DNA from: Brucepastera parasyntrophica | GTDB lineage: Bacteria > Spirochaetota > Spirochaetia > Treponematales > Treponemataceae | DNA: 64,000 nucleotides | Direction of reading: 5' to 3' | Assembly (NCBI RefSeq): GCF_022376835.1 | Contig: NZ_CP084606.1 | Location: 2,842,739-2,906,738, forward strand | Shown here: positions 2,201 through 40,928 of the stretch, in pieces | Layout: the number at the start of each line of letters is the position of its first letter | Numbering within the stretch: position 1 is the first letter of the stretch | Notes under the pieces: generated by a model | What the model was told of the DNA's origin: nothing | What the model saw: the letters and a program-made list of their open reading frames with translations, nothing else | The model's database searches: none | Program-made: the position numbers and the translations under genes

Positions 2201-4852
2201 ATGAAAAAAAAGTTATCCTGTTTGCACGCAGCTTTTATACCGGCTTTGGCCGCGGCCCTCCTGCTGACCGCCTGCAACGCCTTTAATGTTTCCGTGCCCG
2301 AATATCTTGAAGAATATACTTCAAACGCCGCGGCGGAGAGCTGGCGGATTACCACCGGCTCCCAGACCGGACCCGACAGTAAAAAAATTATTATACCGCC
2401 TTCTGACCCGGCGGAAGAAAGCAGCCACACCCTTATAAGCGTCCGGCTCAGGAACCCGAAAAAGTACCCGCTGGCGCTGGGGCTTTCCCGTTATGACACA
2501 GCCGAGGGGGAATATGTTTCTGTTGCCGGTGAAGCCGAAGCGGAACAGACTTCAGCCGACTATATAACAATAACGGTTAAAGATGCCTCCATCCGGGACG
2601 AGTTCCGGTTCCGGCTGTCGATGAAAACACAGGACAATCTCCGGACCTTTGCCGACTATAACCTTCCCCTTATCCGCTGCAATGTCACCCCCGCTTCCGC
2701 TGATAATCTTGAGGTGCGGAATGAAGCCGGGACGCCCACCGTATACTGGAACATGAATACCGCGGATGATTATATTGACGTGAATGAAGTTACGGTATAC
2801 CTCAAGGCCGAAAATACGATTAATACATATATGTATACGAGGGAGACAGATTCTGGTCCCTGGAAAACCGCCGGAGGGACAGAGCTTGATTATACTGATC
2901 CTTCCGCCAGTCTGGCCTTTCCTGCCGGTATGATATCGCAGGAAACAGGGGCTATGGATACGGAAGAATTTGAAAAATACTATAATTTCGCTGTTGTTCT
3001 GAAAAATTCCGACGGGCTTGAGGCCCGGAACGCAACGCCCGGTTTCGGCTGGGACGTATCTCCCGCGGTATTGGCCGGCATTGCCCAGTCGGATGATAAC
3101 CCCGCCCGGGTAAAAGTCACTCTGATCGCGCAGGACGGCAGCCTGAAGGCCGACGAAATACTGTATACGCTGGGCGGCGACAGTACGGTTCATACTTACG
3201 GAAATCCGTTTGAGGCCGCCATCGGAACGGAACTTGTTGCCTGGTCGACAAAGAGCGGCCGGATACCCTCGCGGAAAACCTCGCGAACCCTCATGCTCGA
3301 TACCGTAGTGTTTGTGGATGAAAACTCAACCCCGGCGGCGGATGATAATTATGGATTTGTACCGGCTCTTCCCGCGCCTACAATAGAGGCCGCCATAGAC
3401 TTGCTGAAAACGGCAGATTCCGCTTCCGGCACGGCCGTCCCGCGATATGTCCTGCTTATGTCCGATGTTACTTCCGGCAATTCCGGAAACACCAGCGCGC
3501 TGGTTGAAATAGTAAATTATGACAAAACCCTTGTTATACAGCCGATGGCAGAGAATGATACCGTAACTATTGACGCGGCTGACAGCGGAAGGACAATGTA
3601 TATATCCAGCACATATAACCCGGACATTACCCTGAAAAACCTGATAATAACGGGCGGAAGTCTTTCCTCCGATTATGGTCATGGGATTTTGCTGGTGAAC
3701 CGCGGGACCCTTACTCTGGACAACTGTACCATTACAGACAATGGTAATGGTTTCGGATCAGGCGGAGGGATTGCCCTAAACGGTAACTGGACGCTTAATA
3801 TAAAGGGCGAAACCCGGATCACGGAGAACACAGCCGCGAACGGCGGCGGAATATATAACCGCGGCGGGACTGTCAATATTGAAGACGGAACAATTTCCGG
3901 AAACGGCGCCTCAATGGGCGGGGGCATATACAATGACGGCGGAGCGGTCAATATTGAAAATGCGACCATTTCAGAAAATAACGCTGATCAGCGCGGCGGC
4001 GGTATCTGCATAGTAGCGGGCGGCGGCGGGAGCGTTACCCTGAACGGCGGGACCATTTCCGGCAATGAGACAGCCGGAAACGGCGGCGGAGTATATGTGG
4101 GCGGAGATACATTCAACATGAACGGCGACTTAGTCACTGGAAATACCGCGCAGAACGGCGGCGGTGTGCATATTGAGCTCGGGGCTTTCAATATGACCGG
4201 CGGGGTTATTACCGGCAATGAGGCCACGGTAAACGGCGCCGGTGTGTGTGTAAACGACGGGACCTTCTCCATGCAGGGCAACGCGAAGGTTATTATGGAA
4301 AACCCCGTGTATCTCAAGTCCGGAAAAACGATAACCCTTTCAGGTGATTTCAAGTACCGGGATGCTATCGCCAAGATACAGCCGGAAATGTACGATATAA
4401 ATGTCCGGGTGCTTGACGGGCTGGCCGGATACATTGCGGACAACCATACCAGCTTCGCGGTTGAGGATCAGGAGAACAGCGGTTCCTACCTCAGCTGGGC
4501 TGTCGATAAAAACGGGTACCTTGTTAAAGCCATCGGGATAAGCTGCGATTTTGTGGATGGTATATACGGGCTTGCCTTTACCCCGCCCTCGGATGGACTT
4601 ATCGTAGATAAAGAGGATACTGTCAATATTACTGTTAACCGGTCGTCTCTTCCCACAGCAGCCGGGCTTTCATATACCATACTGATAGAAGGTGAACCTG
4701 ATGTCTCCGCGGAGCTGCTGTCAGGCAATATGATCCCCTTTACCGCGCCAAATACGGCCGGGCAGCACACTGTTTTTGTGGAAATCATTGTGGACATGGA
4801 CAGCAGAAAAACCGCCTATTCCGGCAGCTTTGTGCTGACCGTGAGAATGTGA
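2201..4852 (+). CDS. Large surface lipoprotein with right-handed parallel beta-helix repeats (Pmp-like GGG[IV]/NGGG motifs).
   Basis: ATG with GGAGG RBS. Signal peptide ending in the lipobox LLTAC. More than 10 tandem repeats of xNGGGIYxxGGTVNIxxGTISGN type. Confidence 0.75.
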   Translation: MKKKLSCLHAAFIPALAAALLLTACNAFNVSVPEYLEEYTSNAAAESWRITTGSQTGPDSKKIIIPPSDPAEESSHTLISVRLRNPKKYPLALGLSRYDTAEGEYVSVAGEAEAEQTSADYITITVKDASIRDEFRFRLSMKTQDNLRTFADYNLPLIRCNVTPASADNLEVRNEAGTPTVYWNMNTADDYIDVNEVTVYLKAENTINTYMYTRETDSGPWKTAGGTELDYTDPSASLAFPAGMISQETGAMDTEEFEKYYNFAVVLKNSDGLEARNATPGFGWDVSPAVLAGIAQSDDNPARVKVTLIAQDGSLKADEILYTLGGDSTVHTYGNPFEAAIGTELVAWSTKSGRIPSRKTSRTLMLDTVVFVDENSTPAADDNYGFVPALPAPTIEAAIDLLKTADSASGTAVPRYVLLMSDVTSGNSGNTSALVEIVNYDKTLVIQPMAENDTVTIDAADSGRTMYISSTYNPDITLKNLIITGGSLSSDYGHGILLVNRGTLTLDNCTITDNGNGFGSGGGIALNGNWTLNIKGETRITENTAANGGGIYNRGGTVNIEDGTISGNGASMGGGIYNDGGAVNIENATISENNADQRGGGICIVAGGGGSVTLNGGTISGNETAGNGGGVYVGGDTFNMNGDLVTGNTAQNGGGVHIELGAFNMTGGVITGNEATVNGAGVCVNDGTFSMQGNAKVIMENPVYLKSGKTITLSGDFKYRDAIAKIQPEMYDINVRVLDGLAGYIADNHTSFAVEDQENSGSYLSWAVDKNGYLVKAIGISCDFVDGIYGLAFTPPSDGLIVDKEDTVNITVNRSSLPTAAGLSYTILIEGEPDVSAELLSGNMIPFTAPNTAGQHTVFVEIIVDMDSRKTAYSGSFVLTVRM

Positions 4853-4860
4853 GGAGGGGA

Positions 4861-7800
4861 ATGATGAGACGGAATACCTGCGTTTTACTGGCCGCGGCTG
4901 TTCTTGCCGCCTTATATATGACGGTTTCATGCAGCAACGCCTTTCTTGAGCGGGTCCCCTCGCGCGGACCGGCTCCGGCCGCTGAGGGAATGCTTGATAT
5001 CACGGCATCCGCCGCTTTGTCCGCGGGACGGGCCGCCTTTCCGAATATCGTAATAAGCAGATACGAGTTTACCGTCAAGGACGGGGCCGGAAAAGTAATT
5101 GGTTCAATCACTGAAACAGCGTCCGGTAACGCTGTCAGTATTACTTATCCTGCCTCGGCCGGATATACAATAACCGTGGCCGGAAAAGATTCTTCCGGCA
5201 AAGAGCTTGTCTCCGGCGAAGCTGCTGTTACTGAGGCCCATATCACCGCGGGGACGATGGAAATTAAGATATATCCTGTTACAACAGGCGGAACAGGTTC
5301 AGTTGATCTTAAAATAAAATTCCCGAAGGAATTTGATGACGGCAGTCCGGTAACAAGGGTCATAGCTGAACTCTTGCGGAGTGACGGCACCCAGGCCGGC
5401 CAGGCGCAGACAATTCTCTCAGGTTCATTCGGAGAGCCGGATGCCGGAAGCAGTTCCATAACCGTTGCGTACGATTCCGCGCCCGCCGGCATTCTGCGCC
5501 TGAAACTCACGTTTTACCGGTGGAAAACCACAAATCCTGAGGACGGGATTCCGGCCGGCGTTGTATACGAAAGCCTGAATGTCTGGGCAAATACCTGCAC
5601 GGACAGCTGGCTTAAAGTTACCGATACAACAACCGGTGTGTATGAGCTCGCGGAATACCTTGAACTCACTGAAGATGATTTTTATGATGCTACGGTGACG
5701 CTGGAGAGCGTAAAACAAGAATTTGATGATAATGGAATTGTGCTTGATCTTGTGCTAAACATTGACTATTATCACGAAGTTTCTGCAGAAAAAGTATCAT
5801 TAACTTTTACCATTGGTTTCGACGGTCAGTCGTTCACGATTACAGATGCCAAAGGTTCCTCCGCTGGGCTTGAACCGGATAAGACTTCTGATGGTGTTTT
5901 CAGTGTTTCAAATATTTCCCTTTTTCCCGGTCCGAATAAATTTGTGCTAACTGTAACAGCACCCGACAAACAAACAACAAAAACGTATAATCTGATATAT
6001 ACAACTCCTCCGATTTGGTATGTGGATGAAACCATAGGGGATGATGACAACACCGGAACGGCTACATATCCTCTTGCCAGTGTCAGCGCGGCACTTTCCC
6101 GCATAGCCGCATTGTATGATCCCGATACATGGCCGCATGATTTTGTTAATAATGAATCTGTTGGTCAAAAAACCGCCGAAATCCGGATCAACGGTGACCT
6201 TACTCCAACTGCAGATGACGCCAATCCCAATGGTTTCATTGTTATCGACAATGCCGCCGGTTCATATCCTCCCATACTGCTCAGCGGCAAAGGCGTTTCA
6301 TACCCGGGCGCCCTGGACGCGGATGGAGAGGCCCGCGTGCTGTATATAAACAACGCTGACGTTACCCTGGGCGAAAACCTTACATTGAAAGGCGGTAGCG
6401 CGGAAAGCGGCGGCGGCGTGTACGTGACCGGACCAAACGCGAAATTCACGGTGTCCGGCGGGGAAATTTCGGAAAATGAATCAACCGGTTCCGCCGATGC
6501 AAACGGCGGCGGAGGCATATACGCCGGAAACGGCGCTAAGGTGTTTATGACAGGAGGCACCGTCAGCGAAAATGAGGCGGTAAACGGAGGCGGCCTGTAT
6601 GTTACGGGAAGCGGAACGGCCCTTGAGATGACCAACGGAACCGTCACTGACAATGAGGCCGCCAAGGGCGGCGGCGTGCTGGTCCTGAATAACGCCGTTT
6701 TTACAATGAAGGACAATATCTTCCAGGGCGGAATTATCACCCGAAACACCGCTGTTTATGACGGCTCTTCTCTGCTCACAGGCGCCGGCGCGGGTGTGCT
6801 GGTATATACCGGAGGGAGCTTTAACCTTGAAGCGGGACAAATAACACAAAACGAGTCGGAACTGAACGGCGGCGGTGTACTGGTTATGGGCGGGACCTTC
6901 AATATGAGCGGCGGAACCATTGGCGGCAGTTCAACATCTGATGCCAACAAAGCGGTATACGGCGGCGGCATAGTCCTGTATGATGACGCTGTCTTTACCC
7001 TGACCGGCGGGGAAATCAGTTATAATGAAGCGGAGGAAGGCGGCGGCGTGTATATCAATAATGCTGCCGGAGGCGTCACCGCTGCAATGACCGATGGAAA
7101 AATCAGTTACAATACCGCGGATTCCGGCGGCGGGGTGTATATAACCGGAACAGGCCACAGGTTTAACATGAGCGGCGGGGAAATTTGCTATAATGAGGCA
7201 AACGCATCATTATATGCAGGCGGCGGCATTTATATTGAGGCAGACGCCAATACAGCCGTCAATCTGTCCGGTTCCGCACAGATACACCATAATACTGCAA
7301 CTGACGGTTTTGGCGGCGGAATTTACGCATACGGCGGAACCATTATCCTGAGTGAAGCCGCGGAAATAAGTGAAAATGAAGCGCTGGGCGGTGGCGGTTG
7401 CGGCGGCGGGATGTATCTGCAGGGCCAAAACAAATTTACGATGAACGGCGGAGCTGTCCGCGGTAATACCGCGAACAGTCAGGGAGGCGGGCTTTTTACG
7501 CAGCAAACTGAGTTTACCATGACTGCCGGAAGCATAGAAGATAATAATGCCGTCAATCTCTCTAATAGCTTCGGCGGAGGAGTATACCTGGACAGTGGAT
7601 CGCAGTTTACCATGAGCGGGACCGCGGTAATCAGAAACAATAAGGCAAACAGACAGGGCGGCGGTGTGAATATTTATTGTTCAACCTTCAATATGAACGG
7701 CGGGACAATAACAGGAAATCTGCTTACAAATACATCCTATTCCGAACCCGGCGCGGGTGTGTATGTCGAAGCGCCCCAGCTGAATTTCCCTGCTATATTC

Positions 7801-8226
7801 TCCATGAGCGGTCCTGCCCAGGTGACTGCAGATAATGACGTATATCTGTCACTTGGTGGCACCGGAAACTACCGAGCCATGCTAACGGTCGGCGGTAATC
7901 TCACCGCTTCAAAGGCCGCAGTCATTACGCCGGCAAGTTACCCCAGCGGAACGGACACTGTTCAGGTGCTGGACGGTGACACAGGGCTGATAACGGCAAA
8001 CGCCTCGAAGTTCGGCGTTACCCCGCAGATTGACGGGATTGACACGATATACTGGCAGGTGGACACGGAAGGGAAGCTGGACAAGATTCAAAGTCAGTCC
8101 ATTACTAACTTTGATGATCTCAAAAATGCAATAAACACTACCAACATTGGCGGAACCGCTATTCTGCTCATCGTCGGTACATTCGAAATGGAAGATACCA
8201 TCGCAATCAGTGATTCAAAAATATAA
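4861..8226 (+). CDS. Giant beta-helix repeat lipoprotein, paralog of the upstream gene. The reading frame is broken near its end and continues in 8214..9188. The track start GTG 4849 overlaps the upstream stop; ATG 4861 behind a GAGGAGG RBS is preferred.
   Basis: Lipobox MTVSC. About 25 NGGG[IV]Y/GGG[VL] beta-helix repeats. Starts 8 bp after the upstream stop, so probably in one operon. Confidence 0.75.
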   Translation: MMRRNTCVLLAAAVLAALYMTVSCSNAFLERVPSRGPAPAAEGMLDITASAALSAGRAAFPNIVISRYEFTVKDGAGKVIGSITETASGNAVSITYPASAGYTITVAGKDSSGKELVSGEAAVTEAHITAGTMEIKIYPVTTGGTGSVDLKIKFPKEFDDGSPVTRVIAELLRSDGTQAGQAQTILSGSFGEPDAGSSSITVAYDSAPAGILRLKLTFYRWKTTNPEDGIPAGVVYESLNVWANTCTDSWLKVTDTTTGVYELAEYLELTEDDFYDATVTLESVKQEFDDNGIVLDLVLNIDYYHEVSAEKVSLTFTIGFDGQSFTITDAKGSSAGLEPDKTSDGVFSVSNISLFPGPNKFVLTVTAPDKQTTKTYNLIYTTPPIWYVDETIGDDDNTGTATYPLASVSAALSRIAALYDPDTWPHDFVNNESVGQKTAEIRINGDLTPTADDANPNGFIVIDNAAGSYPPILLSGKGVSYPGALDADGEARVLYINNADVTLGENLTLKGGSAESGGGVYVTGPNAKFTVSGGEISENESTGSADANGGGGIYAGNGAKVFMTGGTVSENEAVNGGGLYVTGSGTALEMTNGTVTDNEAAKGGGVLVLNNAVFTMKDNIFQGGIITRNTAVYDGSSLLTGAGAGVLVYTGGSFNLEAGQITQNESELNGGGVLVMGGTFNMSGGTIGGSSTSDANKAVYGGGIVLYDDAVFTLTGGEISYNEAEEGGGVYINNAAGGVTAAMTDGKISYNTADSGGGVYITGTGHRFNMSGGEICYNEANASLYAGGGIYIEADANTAVNLSGSAQIHHNTATDGFGGGIYAYGGTIILSEAAEISENEALGGGGCGGGMYLQGQNKFTMNGGAVRGNTANSQGGGLFTQQTEFTMTAGSIEDNNAVNLSNSFGGGVYLDSGSQFTMSGTAVIRNNKANRQGGGVNIYCSTFNMNGGTITGNLLTNTSYSEPGAGVYVEAPQLNFPAIFSMSGPAQVTADNDVYLSLGGTGNYRAMLTVGGNLTASKAAVITPASYPSGTDTVQVLDGDTGLITANASKFGVTPQIDGIDTIYWQVDTEGKLDKIQSQSITNFDDLKNAINTTNIGGTAILLIVGTFEMEDTIAISDSKI

Positions 8227-9228: not shown

Positions 9229-9750
9229 GGGTTCTGATGTTTTCATGAAAAACGGAGAGGGCCGCGGCAGTCCATACGGAAACCTCTGATGTGACTGCCA
9301 TCTGCTCAAAATGTCCTGAAAAAATCCGGAATATGGGGTATGCGGTTTTCTTTTCACGGGAACCAGGCCCCTTCGCATCATACCGGATTTCTGTTTTTCT
9401 GCCCGGAATAGGTGCGGCCCGCAGGCTTTCTCACATTCTTTTTTGAAGCCTGTTTTTGGTGCCGGAACTACACTCCTTATTTTTCCATTGGAAGGGCCGT
9501 TCCTTCCCCAATAAAAAAGTCATTTTCCCCGCGGTTTTTCCTTTACAAACCGGACTTTCCGGTACATACTTGAATTATCAGTACAACCTGTTGTACACCC
9601 GCTCCGGCTGAAAATCCGCGAAAAACCGCGAAAATATGTATCTTCCAAAGCCGGGATGAGGCACTGTTCCTCATCCCGTATCAGTGTTTTTTTTGTACCC
9701 GCATTATCCAGGTAAAGTGCCCTGTTCCCGGGAGCGGGCGGAAAGCGGGT

Positions 9751-9833
9751 TTACACAAAGTGCTGTGTGAGACGGAAAAAGTTTACACATTGCCGTGTGT
9801 AAGGAAAAAAACTTTACACATGGTCATGTGTAA
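9751..9833. promoter_or_regulatory. Array A: three tandem 20-bp palindromes TTACACA-N6-TGTGT(A/G)A at 9751-9770, 9783-9802 and 9814-9833. Each is followed by GG(A)AAAAA; unit period 31-32 bp. Lies upstream of the lipoprotein gene that starts at 9892.
   Basis: Read directly from the sequence. Related to array B at 12840-13093, which is in inverted orientation. Confidence 0.7.
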
Positions 9834-9891
9834 GTATTTCGCGTGACGGAAAGATCCCGGCGTTTTACTGCTGATAATAAGGAGAAAAAAA

Positions 9892-10014
9892 GTGAAAAAG
9901 AGACTGTCTTGCGCCCTGTTTCTGCCGGCTGTCCTCGCGGGCGTGCTTCTGGCCGTTTCCTGTGAAAACCCCTTTTACCGGGACTTCCTCAAAAAACCGG
10001 TTACCGTTACCTGA
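9892..10014 (+). CDS. Mini-ORF encoding only a lipoprotein signal peptide (VKKRLSCALFLPAVLAGVLLAVSC + 16 aa), ended by an in-frame TGA at 10012. It is the N-terminus of the downstream lipoprotein (gene interrupted).
   Basis: GTG start 8 nt after AAGGAG. Lipobox LAVSC. Same frame as 10015..12531. Confidence 0.5.
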   Translation: MKKRLSCALFLPAVLAGVLLAVSCENPFYRDFLKKPVTVT

Positions 10015-10071
10015 GACGCGAACGGGGGCGCGGGCGCCGTCCCTAGGGCGGCTGAGGCTGAAAAAGATGAT

Positions 10072-12531
10072 GTGATAACCGCTCCGGACGGAACCGGGTT
10101 GTCGAAAACAGGCATGGGCTTTGCGGGCTGGAACACAAAGGCCGACGGGACCGGCGTCTCCTATGCGGCGGGCTCAAAGATAAAGATAACGGGAAACCTG
10201 AAACTCTACGCCCAGTGGGCCGGGAACAGTTACACGGTAACCTATGACGGAAACGGCCACACGGGAGGCGCGGTCCCGGCCTCGGCTGACTCGGTGTACG
10301 GGGAAAGCCACAGCCTTGCCGGGCCGGGCGGTCTCGAAAAAACCGGCCACAGTTTCGCGGGCTGGAACACGGAACCTGACGGGAGCGGGACACCGTACCC
10401 CGCGGGGACGGGCGTGACGGCTGACTGGGACGGTCCTGTTACATTATATGCCCGGTGGGTGAGCGGCAACGCTGATTTAAGCAATCTGACGGTAAGTGAA
10501 GGGGCCCTGTCCCCTGCCTTTGACCCTGGCGTCATATCTTACACGGTGGAAGTACCCGACACCACGGACAGCCTGACGGTGACAGGCGCCGCGGCGGACA
10601 GCGGGGCGGAACTCAGCGCGAACAGCGGAGCGCCCCAAACACTGAGCGGAGACAGCACTCCGGTAACAATACGGGTGACCGCGGCGGACGGAAGCATAAA
10701 GGACTACACGGTAACCATAGTCCGGCTCGACACCGCGAAAACCATAACGGGTTTCAGTTTTACCGGACTTGCGGAAGGCAATATAAATGAAAATGAAAAA
10801 ACGGTCACGCTCACAGCGCCGTACGGGACGGCTGTAACAGGCCTCGTACCCGATATAACGCACACCGGTGTGAGCGTGAGTCCCGCGTCCGGCGAAGCGG
10901 AGGACTTTACAAACCCGGTAACATACACGGTGACCGCAGCTGACAGCAGTGCGCAGATCTATACGGTAACGGTGAGCGTCGCCTCCCTTGTGTCGATAAC
11001 TCTGAGCGGCGCATACAAGACTCAATATAAAATTGGTGAAAGTCTTGACACCTCGGGACTGGTAATTACGGGGACGGACAGCGCAGGGAACAGTGTGGCA
11101 ATACCTGCCTCCTCATGCGACTTTACAGGCTTCAATAGCGCGACGACGGGTGAAAAAACGGTGACGGTAACCGTGACGGGTACGTCCGTGACAAAAACTT
11201 TCTCCGTGACCGTGCTGAGCAATAACGCGAACTTAAGCGCCCTGACGGTGAGCAACGGAACCCTGACCCCTGTCTTTGACACGAACACGACAAGCTACAC
11301 GGTGAGCGTGGCGAACAGCGTGACCAGTATAACGGTAACCGGTACAAAAGCCGACAGCACCGCAGGTCTGAGTTCTAACAACGGAGAGGTTCAAACGCTT
11401 TCCTTGGGAACGAATCCCATATCCATAACAGTGACCGCGCAGGACGGAACAACCAAGGTATACACGGTAACGGTGACGAGATCGGTACCCAGTACCAACG
11501 CAAACCTTAGTGGCATATCGTTAACTTCGGGAACCCTGAGCCCTGTGTTTACATCCGATGTACTTAATTATACGGTACGCCTGGCTAACAGCGTGAGCGG
11601 CGTCAGGATAACGGGGATAGCGGCGGACAGTGGGGCTGTTGTGAGTGGCAGCGGCTCAACTGACACGCTTACGGTCGGGACGGCAACGCCCAAAACAATA
11701 ACGGTGACCGCCGAGGACGGTGTGACAACAAAGACCTACACCGTAACGGTGACGCGGCAGGGCAGCGCGAGCCTGAGTGCATTGACAGCCAGTGCGGGTC
11801 AGCTGACTCTGGCGTCGTCGGAAACGAATTTCGCAACTACTGGATTTGCATCGGCAGCACTTGACTATATAGTGGGGATAGCTGGAACAAGCGGTGAAAC
11901 GAAGAGCGTAACGATAAACGCGACATCTGCCAGCGGAACGGTGAGCTATTCGCTTGCCGGAGGAGTCGTAAGTGGAATAAGTCGCGGGAACCCTCAAGCG
12001 CTTGAGATAACGGTAACAAACGGAAGCGAAACTTGCATATACACGGTGACCTGTATGCTTGTCGGCTACACGGGCGAGGCAGGCCTTGTATTCTACGACA
12101 AAGGAAATAGCACCGGAGGCTGGCAATACCTTGAGGCTGCGACTGCGGATGCAGGTACGGCGGAATGGGGCTTATCCGGAGTACGCATAAGCGAAACGGT
12201 GACAAGTATAGGAAGCGGAAAGGGAAACACAGGGATACTGGTGAGTGCGCTTACGGCAGCGGGAGAAAGCGGACGGGCAGCACTGCTGTGTGATGCATAC
12301 AGCGGCGCTGGGAGGACTGACTGGTATATGCCGAGCAAAGACGAGCTTAATCTGATGTACAGTAATCTGCACAAGAACAGCCTGGGCAGTTTTACGAACC
12401 ATGGGTACTGGTCGTCGTCTCAGTACTCTCCTAATGAATACGGCGTAGCGTGGAGTCAGTACTTCAACAGTGGAGACCAGATGGACAACAGGAATATTTC
12501 ATTTTACGTACGGGCCTGCCGGGCTTTTTAA
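10072..12531 (+). CDS. Surface protein body. Flg_new (Listeria-Bacteroides) repeats x2, four cadherin-like beta-sandwich domains (ADLSNLTVSxGxLSPxF...YTVTV.R), and a C-terminal DUF1566 (Lcl-like) domain. The in-frame open reading extends back to 10015, right after the TGA.
   Basis: YTVTYDGNGHTGG / GHSFAGWNTEPDGSG / LYARW motifs. Repeated beta-sandwich modules. WYMPSKDELNLMYSNL DUF1566 motif. Confidence 0.75.
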   Translation: MITAPDGTGLSKTGMGFAGWNTKADGTGVSYAAGSKIKITGNLKLYAQWAGNSYTVTYDGNGHTGGAVPASADSVYGESHSLAGPGGLEKTGHSFAGWNTEPDGSGTPYPAGTGVTADWDGPVTLYARWVSGNADLSNLTVSEGALSPAFDPGVISYTVEVPDTTDSLTVTGAAADSGAELSANSGAPQTLSGDSTPVTIRVTAADGSIKDYTVTIVRLDTAKTITGFSFTGLAEGNINENEKTVTLTAPYGTAVTGLVPDITHTGVSVSPASGEAEDFTNPVTYTVTAADSSAQIYTVTVSVASLVSITLSGAYKTQYKIGESLDTSGLVITGTDSAGNSVAIPASSCDFTGFNSATTGEKTVTVTVTGTSVTKTFSVTVLSNNANLSALTVSNGTLTPVFDTNTTSYTVSVANSVTSITVTGTKADSTAGLSSNNGEVQTLSLGTNPISITVTAQDGTTKVYTVTVTRSVPSTNANLSGISLTSGTLSPVFTSDVLNYTVRLANSVSGVRITGIAADSGAVVSGSGSTDTLTVGTATPKTITVTAEDGVTTKTYTVTVTRQGSASLSALTASAGQLTLASSETNFATTGFASAALDYIVGIAGTSGETKSVTINATSASGTVSYSLAGGVVSGISRGNPQALEITVTNGSETCIYTVTCMLVGYTGEAGLVFYDKGNSTGGWQYLEAATADAGTAEWGLSGVRISETVTSIGSGKGNTGILVSALTAAGESGRAALLCDAYSGAGRTDWYMPSKDELNLMYSNLHKNSLGSFTNHGYWSSSQYSPNEYGVAWSQYFNSGDQMDNRNISFYVRACRAF

Positions 12532-12631
12532 CTATTAAATGTTTGAACCGCGGAGGCTTGGCAGGCGGTCAAAATGTTTTTTTACTATGATTTATGCCTT
12601 GGCTTAAGCAGTAAATACTGGCATTCTAAAG

Positions 12632-12660
12632 GGGAACGAGTTGCTGTGCAAGTCGTTCCC
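12632..12660 (+). terminator. Candidate terminator hairpin downstream of the DUF1566 lipoprotein gene.
   Basis: gggaacga / tcgttccc 8-bp stem with a 13-nt loop, followed by a T-rich tract. Confidence 0.35.
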
Positions 12661-12839
12661 TACTTGATTCTTCGACTTGCCTAACTTGTCTCCAGAGGAG
12701 TAAGGCGGAGTAACGACACGGCACACTGGATTTTAGAGAAATTCTACCGGAAAGCCGTTCAGGAATTTGTCGCTGAGCAGGTTAATCTGGAAGTTCTCTG
12801 ATGGGCTTTGTTTTTTGCCAAACTACGGCAGTTTGTACC

Positions 12840-13093
12840 TTACACATTACCGCGTGTAGCCCGGGACAGTTTTACACATATCGGTGTGTAAGATAGCCTC
12901 TGTTTTTCCATAGACGCTGACTGTCGGGCAAGCGCGCCAGTCACCAAGAGAAAGAAACCCGCTATAACAGCCTTCCATATCCACGCGGCAGTTCCAAACC
13001 AAATTACTTCCTACACATCCCAATGTGTAAACTTTCCCTTTCTTACACACACTATTGTGTAAGCTTTCCTTTTTCTACACACTGCATTGTGTA
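12840..13093. promoter_or_regulatory. Array B: the same palindrome family in inverse orientation. 12840-12859 is degenerate, 12872-12891 is perfect, and a triplet lies at 13011-13030, 13043-13062 and 13074-13093 with a 31-32 bp period and T/C-rich 3' tails.
   Basis: Read directly from the sequence. The units are reverse complements of the array A units. Confidence 0.7.
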
Positions 13094-13548
13094 ATCTTTT
13101 TTCTTCTTGAAAAATACCTGAAACCATATCCCGCCGCAAAAACATAGCGTTACATAATTTTTTGCCTCAAATACGATAGCCCATCGTATCAGGCCTGGTT
13201 TTACCGTATCGCTATACACTAAAACTTTCGTCAGGAATAAGGACGAGGGGGCAGCGTAAGACCCCTGACTTTGGCTATTAGCCAAAGTCAGGAGGCTGGA
13301 GACTTTATGATTATTGAAGGAAAGGGTAATCTGAATCCGACGGGAATTGGAAGCCGGGACCGGTTGGCCCCTCGCGGAGAGGGAACATTCTGAAAAGAAA
13401 GACCTCGGTTCGGAGAGAAACAATACCGGCCGCCGAATAAACGAATGCGAAATAGTTTTTATGGCTATTATCGCGAATAGGAGCTCGGTGTACCCCGAAA
13501 AAGCAGGGAAGACTTCCATCCCTTATTTTATAAGAATGGGAGAAAAGT

Positions 13549-14091
13549 ATGAAAGAAGAGGCAAAACGGTATGTTGGTTTAGATTTAGCCAAACGAACAA
13601 TGGAAGTATGTATTCTTAATGACTGCGGAAAAACAGAGCTGAGTAAAAGCGGGGTAAAGACTGACGAAACCGGAAGGAGCCAATTGGCAAACATCTTGAA
13701 ACAAACAGATATTGTGGGAATGGAAGCCTGTGCGTATGCATTTGTACTGGGGAGATATATAGAACAAGCTGTTGGGTGTACGGTATATATTCTAAACCCA
13801 GGGAAGTTACAAATGATATGGCGCTCGACACGAAAAACAGACAAGGAAGACGCACGTAAAATAGCTTCATTTATTCAAAGATATCCGAAAGAAGAATTAC
13901 CGATAGTAGTAATGCCAAGTGAAGAAGAGGAAATGCTGCGGAAATACGTATCAATGAAAAGTTATTTGACCAAACTGCGGACCAGTGTCCTTAATCGGTT
14001 ACATGTAGTATATGTCCAAGCAGGAATAACGACCATAAAAAAGAGTCATTTACATACACCCGAAGGAAGAATGAAACAAAAGGAAGGATGA
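13549..14091 (+). CDS. IS110-family transposase, N-terminal DEDD (RuvC-like) domain. Ends at an in-frame TGA at 14089.
   Basis: YVGLDLAK...MEACAYAF...KTDKEDARKIA motifs. Confidence 0.75.
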   Translation: MKEEAKRYVGLDLAKRTMEVCILNDCGKTELSKSGVKTDETGRSQLANILKQTDIVGMEACAYAFVLGRYIEQAVGCTVYILNPGKLQMIWRSTRKTDKEDARKIASFIQRYPKEELPIVVMPSEEEEMLRKYVSMKSYLTKLRTSVLNRLHVVYVQAGITTIKKSHLHTPEGRMKQKEG

Positions 14092-14103
14092 CCGGAAATA
14101 CTG

Positions 14104-14658
14104 GTGATATTTGCGGAACTATTAGAAAAAGAATTAAAAACGACCGAAGAGCAATTAAAAGAGTTAGAGAGAATCATAGAAAATAACGTAAAAGGCCATG
14201 AATTGGCGCCGTATGTGATGTCGATTCCTGGGGTAGGAATTGGTGTAGCGGCAGCATTTCTTGCCTATGTGGGGGATGGGAGTCGGTTTTCAAAAGCAAG
14301 TGAAATAGCCAATTATGTAGGACTGGTGCCCCGAATAGATTGTTCGGGAGAAACGAATCGGTATGGCAATATTACTAAAGAAGGATGCCGGGCCTTACGA
14401 AGGGTGATATTACAATCGGTATGGTCATTAGTACGATGTAAAGAAGGCGGCGGCCGATTACAAGCAAAATTTTTCGCGCTTAATGAACGGATGGGAAAGA
14501 CGAAAAGTGCTGTTGCGATTGCGCGAAGGATGGTTACCCTTATGTGGATATTGGTACGGCGGAAAGAATTCTATGCAGATATATCAACGGAACAACTCAA
14601 ACGGAAGTTTCGTTATTATCACATACATTATGAGGGATGGGAGTCAAAAATCGCTTGA
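14104..14658 (+). CDS. IS110-family transposase, C-terminal (Transposase_20) domain. Same frame as 13549..14091.
   Basis: SIPGVGIGVAAAFLAYVGDGSRFSKASEIANYVGLVPRIDCSG motif. Confidence 0.75.
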   Translation: MIFAELLEKELKTTEEQLKELERIIENNVKGHELAPYVMSIPGVGIGVAAAFLAYVGDGSRFSKASEIANYVGLVPRIDCSGETNRYGNITKEGCRALRRVILQSVWSLVRCKEGGGRLQAKFFALNERMGKTKSAVAIARRMVTLMWILVRRKEFYADISTEQLKRKFRYYHIHYEGWESKIA

Positions 14659-14762
14659 CAATAATCATAGGAGCGAGGGGGTGCCGCGTCTGCGGTGCTC
14701 CTGTCCGGAGCCTGACGGCCGGCTGTTCCGGCTGGAAGGCGTTCCCCCTTTAAAATAAAAAA

Positions 14763-29036: not shown

Positions 29037-30775
29037 TCAGTCAAACCGCAGACTGTCCGTGACCGGCATTTTTAACGCCCGCCTGGTCGGGAAAAACGCC
29101 ATAGCAGATGACAGCAGCGTCGCTACTATACCCGTACCGATAATGACGGGGACATTCCACGCCGCCCTGAAATAGGACGCTACCCGGTAACCGAAATCTC
29201 CGCCGGCTTCCATCGTAATCGAAGAAAAGTCCAGACCGTATTTGACCATTGGTATATTAATCAGACAGCCTATAATTACTCCGGCGATCGATCCGAGTAA
29301 TCCTGCGGCCCCCGCCTCAAGCATATAAGAAAGGAGAAGCTGACCGTCAGTCATTCCAAGGGCTCTCAGCATCCCGATTTCCCTGGTCCGTTCCAGTATA
29401 GCCATGAGCATGGTATTCGCTATTCCGATAAAGGAGAGAATGAACAGAAGAATAATCATAAGCTGTGTGGAAACCGCGTCGGCATTTGATACCGCGAGAT
29501 AATCCGCCGCGTAATCCTTCCAGCCGTAAACGCCGAGTTCGGAAGGAAGTGTCCGCCCTCTGTCAGCGAGTCCGGAGACAAGGGCCGCCTGCACAGCCCC
29601 AGGGGACTCCTTTTTACCGGGGAGGGATGCGTCGTTTGCCCCTTTTTCACGGATGAGCAATTCAGTGATATGCCCTTCAAGCATGAGGCCGGCCTCATCC
29701 TGCAACACATTAAGCGGAAGATATCCGACATTGGCGTTGTTTTTCGGGTTCGGTGAATTTATGACCCCGACAACAACCGCATCGACCAGCTGATTGACAT
29801 GCCTGACCGCCCCGGAATAATCAGCCCTGATCATTATATCGAGGATTTTTTCAGGAAGGCCTCATCTTCATTTACAAGATAAAAATCCCCGGTCAGCGGG
29901 TCCTGTTCATATGCGGATAAAATTGTGCGTAATTCATCCGGCGTTACTATTTCCGAAAGATCGTTTTCTATTTTTTCACTGCGCAGGACTTCCGGCGCCG
30001 CTTTTATATCAATGACGGTTGAAATCCGTACATCCATCCGTCCGCCTTCCGCGAGTATATTCCAGAAGCGGTTGAGATCGGCGGCGGAAACCGTCTCCTT
30101 CAGGATAAAGCGTTCTTCAATGTTTTCAGACGGATCTTCTTTTTGCGCAAAAAATTCCATGCCTTTTTTTCTTGAAGACGCAGGCTCATAGAGCGACAGG
30201 ATAAAATCGCGTTCTTCCTGATCCCTCGCGTAATTCAGAATATCCGTTTTCAGTTCACTTTCCGCCGGACGCTGGGGAATTCCTGTTTTCAGTTTTTCGG
30301 CGGCCATTGTTCCGAGCGCAATTTCAAAACCGTCCGGCTCGATAAAACGTCCGGATTCCATATAGTTTGCGTAACGTAAAAGTCTTATCTCCGCTTCCGG
30401 ATCGACCGCGTTGAATTCCATCGGCGCGGACCCGGTCGCCGAATAAAGGGTTCCGGTGAATACAAACCGGGGCGCGGAATCGTAACCTTTTTCATTCAGG
30501 ACTTCGGCATAGGTTTCCCAGCCTGAAAAATTTTCATACATGGGAAGATCATCCTTTTTTTCAAAATACAAATGGGTTTGTATTTTATCGGCCCCGATTT
30601 CATAACTCACAATATTGCGTTCCGAGTCAAGATTGATCCCCAAAAGCCAGCCGTCCACAAAAATATACATGGATACACTGATTGCTATTGCCAGAGTGGT
30701 AATAACCGTTTTAACCCGGTGACGGGAAAGATTACGGAAAGCCATTCCTGCAATGGAAAAAAATGATGTTTTCAT
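29037..30775 (-). CDS. Second type-VII ABC permease with a long periplasmic domain. Split into two track ORFs by a frame change at a T6/A6 run (29846-29851).
   Basis: N-terminal TM and MacB_PCD domain (30775..29834). Restoring one A reads ...LKKILDIMIRADYSGAV... into the FtsX C-terminal half. Confidence 0.65.
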
Positions 30776-31457
30776 TACCTGACTGTCTCCGACTCGACTT
30801 GTCCGTCCCTGAGCATAATAATACGCCGGGCGTAATCCATAACCATCTGATCATGGGTGGAAAATATAAAGGTGGTCCCCGCGCTGCGGTTTAGATTAAG
30901 CATGAGTTCAAGGATTTCCTTTCCTGTTGTTGAATCAAGATTTGCGGTCGGCTCATCCGCGAGAATGAGCGCCGGCTTTTTTACCAGTGCCCGCGCAATA
31001 GCGACACGCTGCTGCTGCCCGCCCGACATTTCCTTTGGCCGCCGGTTTTCCATTCCTTCTAGTCCGACATCCCTGAGCGCTGCCATGGAGCGTTCTCTGA
31101 TTTCATGTTTATCAAACCCAAGCAAAACAAGCGGGAAGGATATGTTTTCCAGAACAGACAAAACGGGAATCAGGTTATAAGCCTGAAAGATAAAACCGAT
31201 ATTGTTCCGCCGTATCAGCGCAAGTTCCTTTTTACTGAGCGAGGCTATATCCGTTTCCTCAATGAGAATGGAACCTGAACTGAGCGCATCAAGGCATCCG
31301 ACGAGGTGCAGAAAAGTTGACTTTCCGCTTCCTGAGGGCCGGCGATTGCGGAAAATTCTCCCGCTTCAAAACCGAGATTTACTCCCCTCAGCGCGTGTAC
31401 GGTTATTCCATTCAGACTGTAATCCTTGACCAGATTATTCGTTTTTACAACAGTCAT
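30775..31457 (-). CDS. ABC transporter ATP-binding protein (MacB/LolD-type). The frame is broken at a G3/C3 run (~31336-31338).
   Basis: The Walker A GPSGSGKST is recovered after the frame correction. Signature LSGGQQQRVAIARAL; Walker B ILADEPT. Confidence 0.75.
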
Positions 31458-39559: not shown

Positions 39560-40928
39560 ATGAAAGTAGTAATTATCGGCGCAGTCGCGGGCGGCACGAC
39601 TGCCGCGACAAAGATAAGGCGGAATGACAAGTCCGCTGAAATTATTCTTTTCGAACAGGATGGGGATATTTCATATTCAGCCTGCGGCATACCGTATTAT
39701 GTGGGGGAGAAATCCCCAAAGCCGAATCCCTGACTCCCCGGGGTCCCGCATGGTTTAAGGACAAATATAATATTGATGTCCGTATTTTTCACCGTGTGAC
39801 CGCAATACATCCCGATAAAAAAACGGTTGAGGTTCTTAATCTTAAGACCGGTGAAAGCAGTACGGTTTCGTATGATAAACTCATTTTTTCAACCGGAGCC
39901 CTGCCGGTCATTCCCGCTCCGTTCGCAACGGCGCTTGACGCCGGAAACATATTTACGGTCAGAACGATCAGGGACGCGGTAAAAATACGGACTTTCATAA
40001 CGGAGTCAAAACCGGAACGCGCCGTTATAATCGGGGCGGACTGATAGGACTCGAAATGGCGGAGCAGCTGAGAAAACTGGATATTGATGTCACTCTGGTA
40101 CAGTGGCACCCTCATATATTATATCAGATGGATGAAGATATGATCCTGCCCGTGCAGTATGAGCTTGAACAGCATGGCGTTCATCTGAAACTCGCGACTG
40201 AAGTGACCGGATTTCAGCGGGGCCCGGGCAATAATATACATATTCTGGAAACGGCCGGGGGAGAAAAACTGGAAGCAGACATGGTCCTTCTCGCCGCGGG
40301 AGTTCGTCCGAATACGGAACTGACCGTAGGCACCGGCATTAAGACAGGTGTGACTGGTGCCGTAAAAGTTGACGCGTATATGAGAACAACTGTTCCGGAT
40401 ATTTATGCTGCCGGTGATGTAGCGGAGAGTTTTTCGGTTATCACGGGCAAGGCTGTTTACCGTCCCCTCGGAACAACGGCCAATAAAACAGGACGGATAG
40501 CAGGGGATGCTGTGACAGGCGGCGGTCTCAAACACCGGGGGGTACTGGGTACCGCAATTGTCCGTGTGTTCGGCATTACTGTTGCGTTTACCGGACTGAA
40601 TGAACGTGAGGCTGCTGACCACGGTTATGACTGTATCAGCAAACGCGATACCTATCCCGATCACGCTCCCTATCTGGGCGGCGAAAATATGGTGGTAAAA
40701 ATTATCGCGGATAAAAAATCCGGCCTTGTTCTCGGCGCCCAGATTACCGGAAGGGCAGGGGTGGATAAACGTATCGATGTGCTGGCTACAGCCATTACTT
40801 ACAGGGCCCGCGTCGAAGACCTGTTTCATCTTGACCTTGCCTATTCCCCTCCCTATTCAATTGTAAAAGATCCCATTCAGTATGTAGGCATGGCTATGGA
40901 AAAACAAATCCAGGGAAAGAATTCATAA
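39560..40928 (+). pseudogene. CoA-disulfide reductase / NADH oxidase (pyridine nucleotide-disulfide oxidoreductase) broken into three ORFs by single-base deletions in G runs (39703-39707 and ~40038).
   Basis: MKVVIIGAVAGGTTAATKIRR...CGIPYYVGG | EIPKAESLTPRGPAWFKDKYNIDV... | GLIGLEMAEQL... The C-terminal dimerisation domain is intact. Confidence 0.7.

Follow-up and report, generated by a model that had tools for sequence, protein, structure and literature searches.

What do eight copies of a short palindrome do at the two ends of one surface-lipoprotein gene? The gene lies in a 64,000-nucleotide stretch of the spirochete Brucepastera parasyntrophica (contig NZ_CP084606.1, positions 2,842,739 to 2,906,738 of the forward strand), which we call the window and number from its first letter. 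Three copies of the palindrome TTACACA-N6-TGTGTAA precede the gene, five follow it, and an IS110-family transposase gene stands beyond them. An initial annotation of this DNA had left two readings side by side: a phase-variable locus inverted by an IS110/Piv-type recombinase, and a multi-operator site for a regulator. We consider it slightly better than an even bet that the eight palindromes would act as operator sites for one dimeric DNA-binding regulator of the lipoprotein gene.

Eight phased palindromes at one locus

We searched the whole window for TTACACA-N6-TGTGTAA, allowing up to two mismatches, and obtained eight matches, all at this one locus (Table 1). Dinucleotide shuffles contained a mean of 0.11 sites and never more than one, and a count of eight was reached in 0 of 100. 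A position weight matrix (PWM) built from the eight sites scored them at 20-29 bits; the next-best 20-mer in the 64 kb reached 9.9 bits, leaving a gap of more than 10 bits. The palindrome arrays themselves are real and statistically secure. The three tandem copies that the initial annotation had placed at 9751, 9783 and 9814, 31-32 bp apart, were recovered by the mismatch search, as were its two extra copies at 12840 and 12872 (two and zero mismatches). For the last three copies, its starts at 13011 and 13043 are correct and the third, given as 13074, is at 13075.

The sites fall into three clusters, which we term array A, pair C, and array B. The start-to-start spacing is 31-32 bp, or about three helical turns, in all three, and Tandem Repeats Finder reports periods of 31 and 32 for the palindrome arrays. 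Array A is upstream of the lipoprotein gene, 58 bp short of its start codon. Pair C lies 309 bp past the stop codon, and pair C and array B together occupy the region 0.3-0.5 kb 3′ of the gene. Such a 3+2+3 layout of sites at both ends of one gene is uncommon.

Conservation is concentrated in the half-sites. The outer positions (1-7 and 14-20) carry 1.3-2.0 bits of information each and the six in the centre 0.06-0.41 bits, with half-sites conserved over 5-7 bp and inner cores 11 bp apart. The central hexamers (AAGTGC, TTGCCG, TGGTCA, TTACCG, TATCGG, TCCCAA, CACTAT, and CTGCAT) include no two alike in either orientation; the closest pair is one nucleotide apart, in direct orientation. When each cluster is read in its own orientation, the 5′ half-site is perfect in 8/8 sites and all deviations fall in the 3′ half-site.

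That arrays A and B are mutually inverted around the lipoprotein gene, as first annotated, is borne out, with orientation set solely by the purine-rich spacers. With that spacer on top, the unit common to A (plus strand) and B (minus strand) is (A)AAGT-TTACACA-N6-TGTGTA(A/G)-G(A/G)AA. The A-rich tract said to follow every copy in array A is present after the first two (GACGGAAAAAG and GGAAAAAAAC), and the third copy is followed by GTATTTCG instead. The best inverted arm between A and B spans 51 nt at 75% complementarity, and the longest exact stretch common to both is 15 nt (AAAGTTTACACATTG, at 9778 and 13021), inverted and made up mostly of the conserved half-site. Since the flanks of A and B have no similarity past the arrays (local alignment z = 1.0 and 0.2), the arrays are self-contained modules of ~100 bp and not part of a larger duplication.

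We also considered whether the locus is an array of clustered regularly interspaced short palindromic repeats (CRISPR) and rejected this assignment, as the palindromic repeats are only 20 bp long and are separated by 11-12 bp of similar purine-rich sequence, whereas CRISPR repeats measure 23-50 bp and have unique spacers of comparable length.

Operator-like anatomy and a Firmicutes counterpart

Conserved half-sites around an unread centre are the signature of a helix-turn-helix (HTH) dimer bound in successive major grooves. The spirochete sites are dyad-symmetric, with conserved half-sites, an unconstrained centre, and helical phasing. Because the half-sites are conserved, the centres variable, and the phasing close to three turns, the pattern is that of dimer operators. 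The multi-operator reading put forward in the initial annotation fits this anatomy, and it rests on sequence pattern and analogy. The regulator is most likely an HTH protein encoded outside the window.

In the mechanism that we propose, each dimer would read the outer 5-7-bp half-sites (TTACACA / TGTGTAA) in successive major grooves and not the central 6 bp. The three-turn spacing would put bound dimers on one face of the DNA, leading to cooperative binding, and bending would be helped by the A-tracts, which recur in phase between sites. A terminator-like hairpin followed by T8 (9653-9697; hairpin 9653-9677) precedes array A, and the lipoprotein ribosome-binding site, at 9879, follows it, so the promoter is expected within or beside the array, which would overlap or adjoin this promoter and control the gene. 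Pair C and array B would either loop to array A over ~3.2 kb or govern a leftward transcript missing from the annotation, or they may be vestiges. We infer from the sites both the binding of a protein and what kind of protein it would be, and since no sigma-70 promoter could be placed at array A, that protein might repress or might activate.

The closest counterparts that we found are in Firmicutes. A scan for phased pairs of TACACA-N6-TGTGTA covered public genomes, metagenomes, and viral contigs. It returned no locus from B. parasyntrophica or another spirochete, but the motif recurs, two to three times in tandem with a period of 32-35 bp, in genomes of Firmicutes, in metagenomes, and in viral contigs. 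The sources were Enterocloster lavalensis, [Clostridium] asparagiforme, Jutongia hominis, an Acutalibacteraceae metagenome-assembled genome (MAG), gut and bioreactor metagenomes, and five IMG/VR contigs. These arrays, of two to three sites, occupy a divergent intergenic region, and at 19 loci a 68-93-aa HTH_26 gene (PF13443, Cro/C1-type HTH; E = 1.6e-12 to 2e-8) lies within a few hundred bp of the array (L001, L003, L006, L007, L014, L015, L019, L023, L041, L045, L046, L052, L054, L056, L062, and L071-L074). We read three loci closely, L007, L073, and L075; in each, the 17-bp gap from a -35-like hexamer to TATAAT is taken up exactly by one site, as in TTGAGA-TTACACATTTAAATGTG-TATAAT of L007, an arrangement typical of operators. 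At the level of sequence, this shows that such half-sites at this phasing serve as predicted operators of small HTH repressors on prophage/ICE-like mobile elements of Firmicutes; binding of the spirochete sites by an HTH_26 relative does not follow from it.

Several further observations concern these scans. In the Firmicutes module, the TGTG of the operator makes an extended -10 with TATAAT, and the opposite gene often encodes a J-domain-like or small conserved protein. The Firmicutes HTH proteins had no match in PHROGs, and we know of no publication on tandem TACACA-N6-TGTGTA operators beside HTH_26 genes. Among the 60 matches of the metagenome scan, most are microsatellite-like TG/CA/TA repeats or exact tandem satellites, and none is similar to the window. 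One Bacteroidota MAG contig (JBDKKX010000123.1; L002:1-420) carries, at the contig end, at least six perfect palindromes of the form ATACACACG(A/G)(C/T)CGTGTGTAT at an irregular spacing of 33-73 bp; they form two oppositely oriented groups and look like iterons or another protein-binding array.

Like the spirochete arrays, the Firmicutes HTH_26 operators combine the core half-sites with a 6-bp gap, variable centres, and two to three copies repeated at about every three helical turns. They differ in lying between divergent genes, one of them the small HTH_26 gene, whereas the spirochete window has no HTH_26 homolog. A clear sigma-70 promoter is present in Firmicutes, with a site as its -35/-10 spacer, whereas no core promoter is recognisable in the spirochete array. 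The outer bases also differ (TTACACA in the spirochete, ATACACA in Firmicutes), and only the spirochete locus has a second, inverted array 3.2 kb away.

This last feature invites comparison with the tripartite lambda operators OR and OL, which reportedly support CI-mediated long-range looping (work by Dodd and colleagues from 2001 and 2004). Both loci have two sets of three pseudo-palindromic operators, mutually inverted and 2-3 kb apart around a block of genes, and in lambda the dimers are cooperative. However, the lambda operators are ~23-24 bp apart and overlap two outward-facing promoters, with the repressor gene between the sets, whereas the spirochete arrays have a 32-bp period, point inward, and enclose no repressor gene; looping here is hypothetical. 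The half-site and 6-bp-gap geometry of the palindromes also matches that of a textbook dimer operator, ACAA-N6-TTGT of phage 434. Lrp at pap and NorR-type enhancer-binding proteins, with three sites, act as cooperative oligomers that wrap or assemble on phased DNA sites. They share with our locus three phased sites about three turns apart, upstream of a surface-structure or regulated gene, but the spirochete site sequences differ, there is no GATC/Dam component, and no Lrp or enhancer-binding-protein gene was identified. Among the sites for CRP, TyrR, the NifA upstream activating sequence, cop-box/BlaI, Rex, the DnaA box, parS, and EbfC, we know of none with the same half-site and spacing. A literature search with the half-site strings returned only incidental primer or sequence matches, and the Brucepastera papers do not treat the locus.

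A number of findings weigh against the operator reading. No regulator gene adjoins the arrays: the nearest, a TetR-family gene, is 5.8 kb away with no palindrome before it, and a profile search of all six frames of the window revealed no homolog of the Firmicutes HTH_26 protein. A consensus scan of 9700-9891 found no promoter, so that no sigma-70 element could be positioned convincingly with respect to array A; for a -24/-12 (sigma-54) promoter there is only a bare GG-N10-GC at 9848-9861, which is not convincing. Array B and pair C lie downstream of the gene and point at its 3′ end, with no open reading frame (ORF) behind them; nucleotide and protein-level alignments of the DNA behind array B stayed at shuffle level, revealing neither an ORF nor a decayed paralog. 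The locus was not found in any related genome examined and thus has no support from evolutionary conservation, and the gene supposedly controlled is a pseudogene as assembled. Finally, a simple symmetric operator has no need for array polarity, and yet one strand of the spacers is purine-rich, and in RNA with the sequence of this strand the three deviations of A and B would pair as G-U. This polarity keeps an RNA-level or single-strand reading alive, but it is weak evidence, as the pattern depends on three to five substitutions (p ~0.1).

The IS110 element and the alternative readings

The transposase gene downstream of array B is part of a solitary IS110-family insertion sequence (IS). Its boundaries follow from homology to three related copies in metagenomes (L068, L069, and L070), which begins at ~13296 and ends at ~14690; those copies occupy unrelated contexts, beside a PIN toxin, a caspase-like gene, and a DsbD-type gene. 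The ~360-aa protein has the two domains of the family (PF01548, 7.6e-16; PF02371, 3.7e-20), and the element has the shared ends and conserved leader expected of an IS110-family member. The transposase aligns over 100% of its length to homologs of 366-369 aa, which have Leu where it has an in-frame TGA. Its best database relative is 73% identical, and the protein database yielded no close intact copy, either among the entries of the source genome or among others.

The leader, of ~250 nt, has a common fold in the four copies (window 13296-13548, L068:593-847, L069:2745-3000, and L070:1-269), and 12 of its base pairs persist although both bases have changed; the copies share just 63-73% protein identity. 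It had no match in Rfam 15. A bridge RNA of the IS110 family is said to have been described by Durrant and colleagues and by Hiraizumi and colleagues, both in 2024; the conserved, folded 250-nt leader presumably resembles it, and the leader is probably the bridge RNA of this family. A near-perfect hairpin that is unique in the window abuts the left IS junction (Table 1). It may be the target of this IS copy or the terminator of the convergent genes.

The element ends 200 bp from array B. The distance of ~450 bp between the IS110 gene and array B that had been noted is right (455 bp), and it consists of 200 bp of host DNA plus the IS leader. Judging from these sequence boundaries, the IS110 element is an unrelated, inactivated insertion in a long convergent intergenic region and is not part of the palindrome system. 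The proposal that the palindromes are IS110 targets is not supported: the left junction is 200 bp from array B, at a different hairpin, and neither the IS nor the three related loci examined, L068-L070, contains a site. The best PWM scores were 7.6 bits in the three related loci and -0.7 bits inside the IS, compared to 20-29 bits for true sites.

With the element bounded, inversion of the segment becomes very improbable. On this reading an IS110/Piv-type recombinase, or a site-specific recombinase encoded elsewhere, would flip 9.75-13.1 kb via the inverted arrays, much as Piv of Moraxella, also a DEDD-type recombinase of the IS110 group, has its gene beside a surface-protein gene bracketed by inverted repeats. 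Arrays A and B do stand inverted around a surface-protein gene with a DEDD-family recombinase gene nearby, they share the 15-nt exact inverted stretch, and short inverted repeats suffice in some systems, such as the fim inversion switch with its 9-bp repeats. However, unlike the Piv gene, the recombinase gene here is a pseudogene, separated from the repeats and belonging to a complete, bounded IS with ends and a leader RNA of its own, whose relatives are scattered in unrelated places; the nonsense codon interrupts the transposase, and Pfam found no tyrosine or serine recombinase domain among the window genes. Tyrosine recombinases that exchange strands in the central region need identity there, and because the central hexamers of all eight sites differ, in both orientations, the sites have no common crossover core. 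In addition, the gene and array A would move as one, so inversion would not uncouple the gene from a promoter in or beside the array. The window thus holds neither an identical crossover core nor a functional dedicated recombinase gene, and the invertible phase-variable locus of the initial annotation is not supported: the apparent IS110/Piv switch dissolves once the IS boundaries are mapped.

The other explanations start from the arrays alone. The palindromes could act in RNA, as stem-loops at the 5′ and 3′ untranslated ends of the lipoprotein mRNA or within some leftward RNA, stabilising it or binding a protein at GGA-rich spacers in the manner of repetitive extragenic palindromic (REP) elements, and the polarity noted above would then make sense. 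Each unit combines a 7-bp stem and a 6-nt loop, and the spacer behind it is purine-rich and contains GGA on one strand alone; it is on exactly this strand that G-U pairs would arise in the three imperfect A and B copies; the predicted folds are far more stable than shuffles (z = -5.3 and -4.6); and the arrays stand at both ends of a gene, where REP clusters are often found. Nevertheless, those z-scores are a trivial consequence of the palindromes, the G-U pattern amounts to three substitutions at outermost stem positions, and it is the loops that vary, whereas the stem sequence is identical throughout and lacks any compensatory change. Invariant stems with variable loops favour recognition of sequence over structure. 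Unlike dispersed REPs, the palindrome has no copy elsewhere in the 64 kb, no Rfam family matched at the gathering threshold (a relaxed E-value gave nothing credible), and Pfam found no REP-associated tyrosine transposase domain (RAYT, IS200/IS605-like TnpA) among the window genes. We judge the RNA explanation rather unlikely, and less so than the two that follow. If the lipoprotein gene were instead the cargo of a non-autonomous mobile cassette, with the arrays as ends that bind transposase at several sites like those of Tn7 or Mu, the three repeated, inverted sites per end and the G+C content of 57.5% in the 10001-12000 bin, compared to 46% in the bins on either side, would be accounted for. 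But the upstream surface-protein region (4001-8000) also has ~51-53% G+C, the flanks carry no target-site duplication (CGGGT on the left, TCTTT on the right), the segment between the arrays encodes no transposase, each site is a palindrome in itself, and the supposed element would include pair C. No second copy was found in public genomes, metagenomes, phages, or plasmids, and a BLAST search of array A against phage and plasmid collections gave nothing meaningful, leaving the cassette with as little probability as inversion. Marginally less probable still is a relic of an integrated plasmid or phage in which the palindromes served as initiator or partition-protein sites. Iterons and sopC-type centromeres are tandem, phased protein-binding repeats, which our phased sites with A-rich spacers resemble, and the Firmicutes analogues reside on mobile elements; against this, the window genes scanned with Pfam include no rep, par, integrase, or phage gene, the flanking genes encode chromosomal surface and tetratricopeptide repeat (TPR) proteins, and the phage and plasmid collections contained no match.

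The lipoprotein gene and its surroundings

The lipoprotein gene is interrupted by an in-frame TGA at 10012-10014, codon 41 (VTVT*DANGG), and the NCBI annotation retains only the 818-aa remainder (P0129), without the signal peptide. The genome also encodes two paralogs, P0131 and P0160, and both have Tyr here. As assembled, the gene is a pseudogene or contains a base-call error. The initial annotation had called it a Flg_new/cadherin-like/DUF1566 lipoprotein; Pfam supports the Flg_new and Cadherin-like domains, and the DUF1566 (Lcl_C) match, at 31.0 bits, is below the curated cut-off of 34.9. Its closest non-self relative is at most 42% identical.

The lipoprotein gene and the neighbouring IS110 transposase gene each carry a single in-frame TGA (10012-10014 and 14089-14091) and are otherwise full-length. 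Read with table 11, the window's remaining long ORFs are uninterrupted, so a recoded genetic code is not indicated. Elsewhere, an ABC ATPase gene (30775-31457, minus strand) and a pyridine-nucleotide-disulfide oxidoreductase gene (39560-40928, plus strand) seem split into two or three ORFs. These split ORFs suggest that several window genes may be pseudogenes, or assembly errors, which bears on the TGA codons.

Upstream of the locus are genes for large secreted-looking proteins without Pfam matches. Downstream are a DUF6340/TPR lipoprotein gene on the other strand, whose relatives are at most 49% identical and lack synteny, and a gene for a TPR protein; pair C and array B sit in the convergent intergenic region, which was roughly 900 bp long until the IS inserted. 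The 700-bp gap 5′ of array A contains a sigma-70-like match (TTTACA-17-CATACT, 9542-9570), an 11-nt inverted repeat (CGCGGTTTTTC / GAAAAACCGCG), and a separate palindrome (GTACAACCTGTTGTAC at 9581), and the region 9529-9700 may encode a small unannotated transcript. Runs of A7 occur inside array A (9805-9811) and, past the ribosome-binding site, just ahead of the lipoprotein GTG start codon (9885-9891); they are short for slipped-strand phase variation, though placed where a change in length would matter.

Table 1. Coordinates of features in the 64-kb window
Feature	Position	Strand	Description
Array A	9751-9833	+	palindromes 9751-9770 (1 mismatch), 9783-9802 (0), 9814-9833 (0); 32/31-bp period; spacers purine-rich on + strand
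Pair C	12840-12891	ambiguous (spacer not purine-rich)	palindromes 12840-12859 (2 mismatches), 12872-12891 (0, perfect); 32-bp period
Array B	13011-13094	-	palindromes 13011-13030 (1 mismatch), 13043-13062 (0), 13075-13094 (1); 32/32-bp period; spacers purine-rich on - strand
Lipoprotein gene	9892-12531	+	signal peptide with lipobox Cys, Flg_new x2, Cadherin-like x3, Big_3, DUF5018, sub-threshold Lcl_C (Pfam)
Hairpin at left IS junction	13259-13297		19-nt arms AGACCCCTGACTTTGGCTA / TAGCCAAAGTCAGGAGGCT
IS110-family element	13296-14690 (+/- ~10 bp)	+	solitary; ends from homology to three related IS copies
IS110 sub-terminal inverted repeat, left	13306-13316		TATGATTATTG
IS110 sub-terminal inverted repeat, right	14659-14669		CAATAATCATA
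IS110 5′ leader	13296-13548	+	conserved in four IS copies
IS110 transposase ORF	13549-14658	+	DEDD_Tnp_IS110 and Transposase_20; in-frame TGA 14089-14091
TetR-family regulator	18892		not adjacent to arrays; no palindrome
GntR-family regulator	32550		not adjacent to arrays; no palindrome
PadR-family regulator	37858		not adjacent to arrays; no palindrome
TetR-family regulator	42651		not adjacent to arrays; no palindrome
TrpR-like ORF	53730		not adjacent to arrays; no palindrome
MerR-family regulator	58198		not adjacent to arrays; no palindrome
AraC-family regulator	62277		not adjacent to arrays; no palindrome

The palindrome arrays most likely belong to an already-known class of element, the phased operator array. 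A bolder version of the operator reading, which we think unlikely, is that a spirochete regulator bound to the two convergent three-site arrays and the two-site cluster would close a ~3.2-kb loop around the lipoprotein gene, for repression or insulation like that of lambda OL-OR, possibly as the control element of a gene family in the lineage. As a side product, the analysis reveals half-sites common to the putative operators of a small HTH_26 repressor family on Firmicutes mobile elements. If the spirochete sites are operators, their 3+2+3 layout around one gene would offer a small natural system in which to study cooperative looping over a long range. The arrays would also be bait for the transcription factor controlling a surface lipoprotein in a little-studied, free-living spirochete lineage: we know of no characterised regulon in the Brucepastera lineage, and eight near-identical sites are well suited to DNA pull-down.

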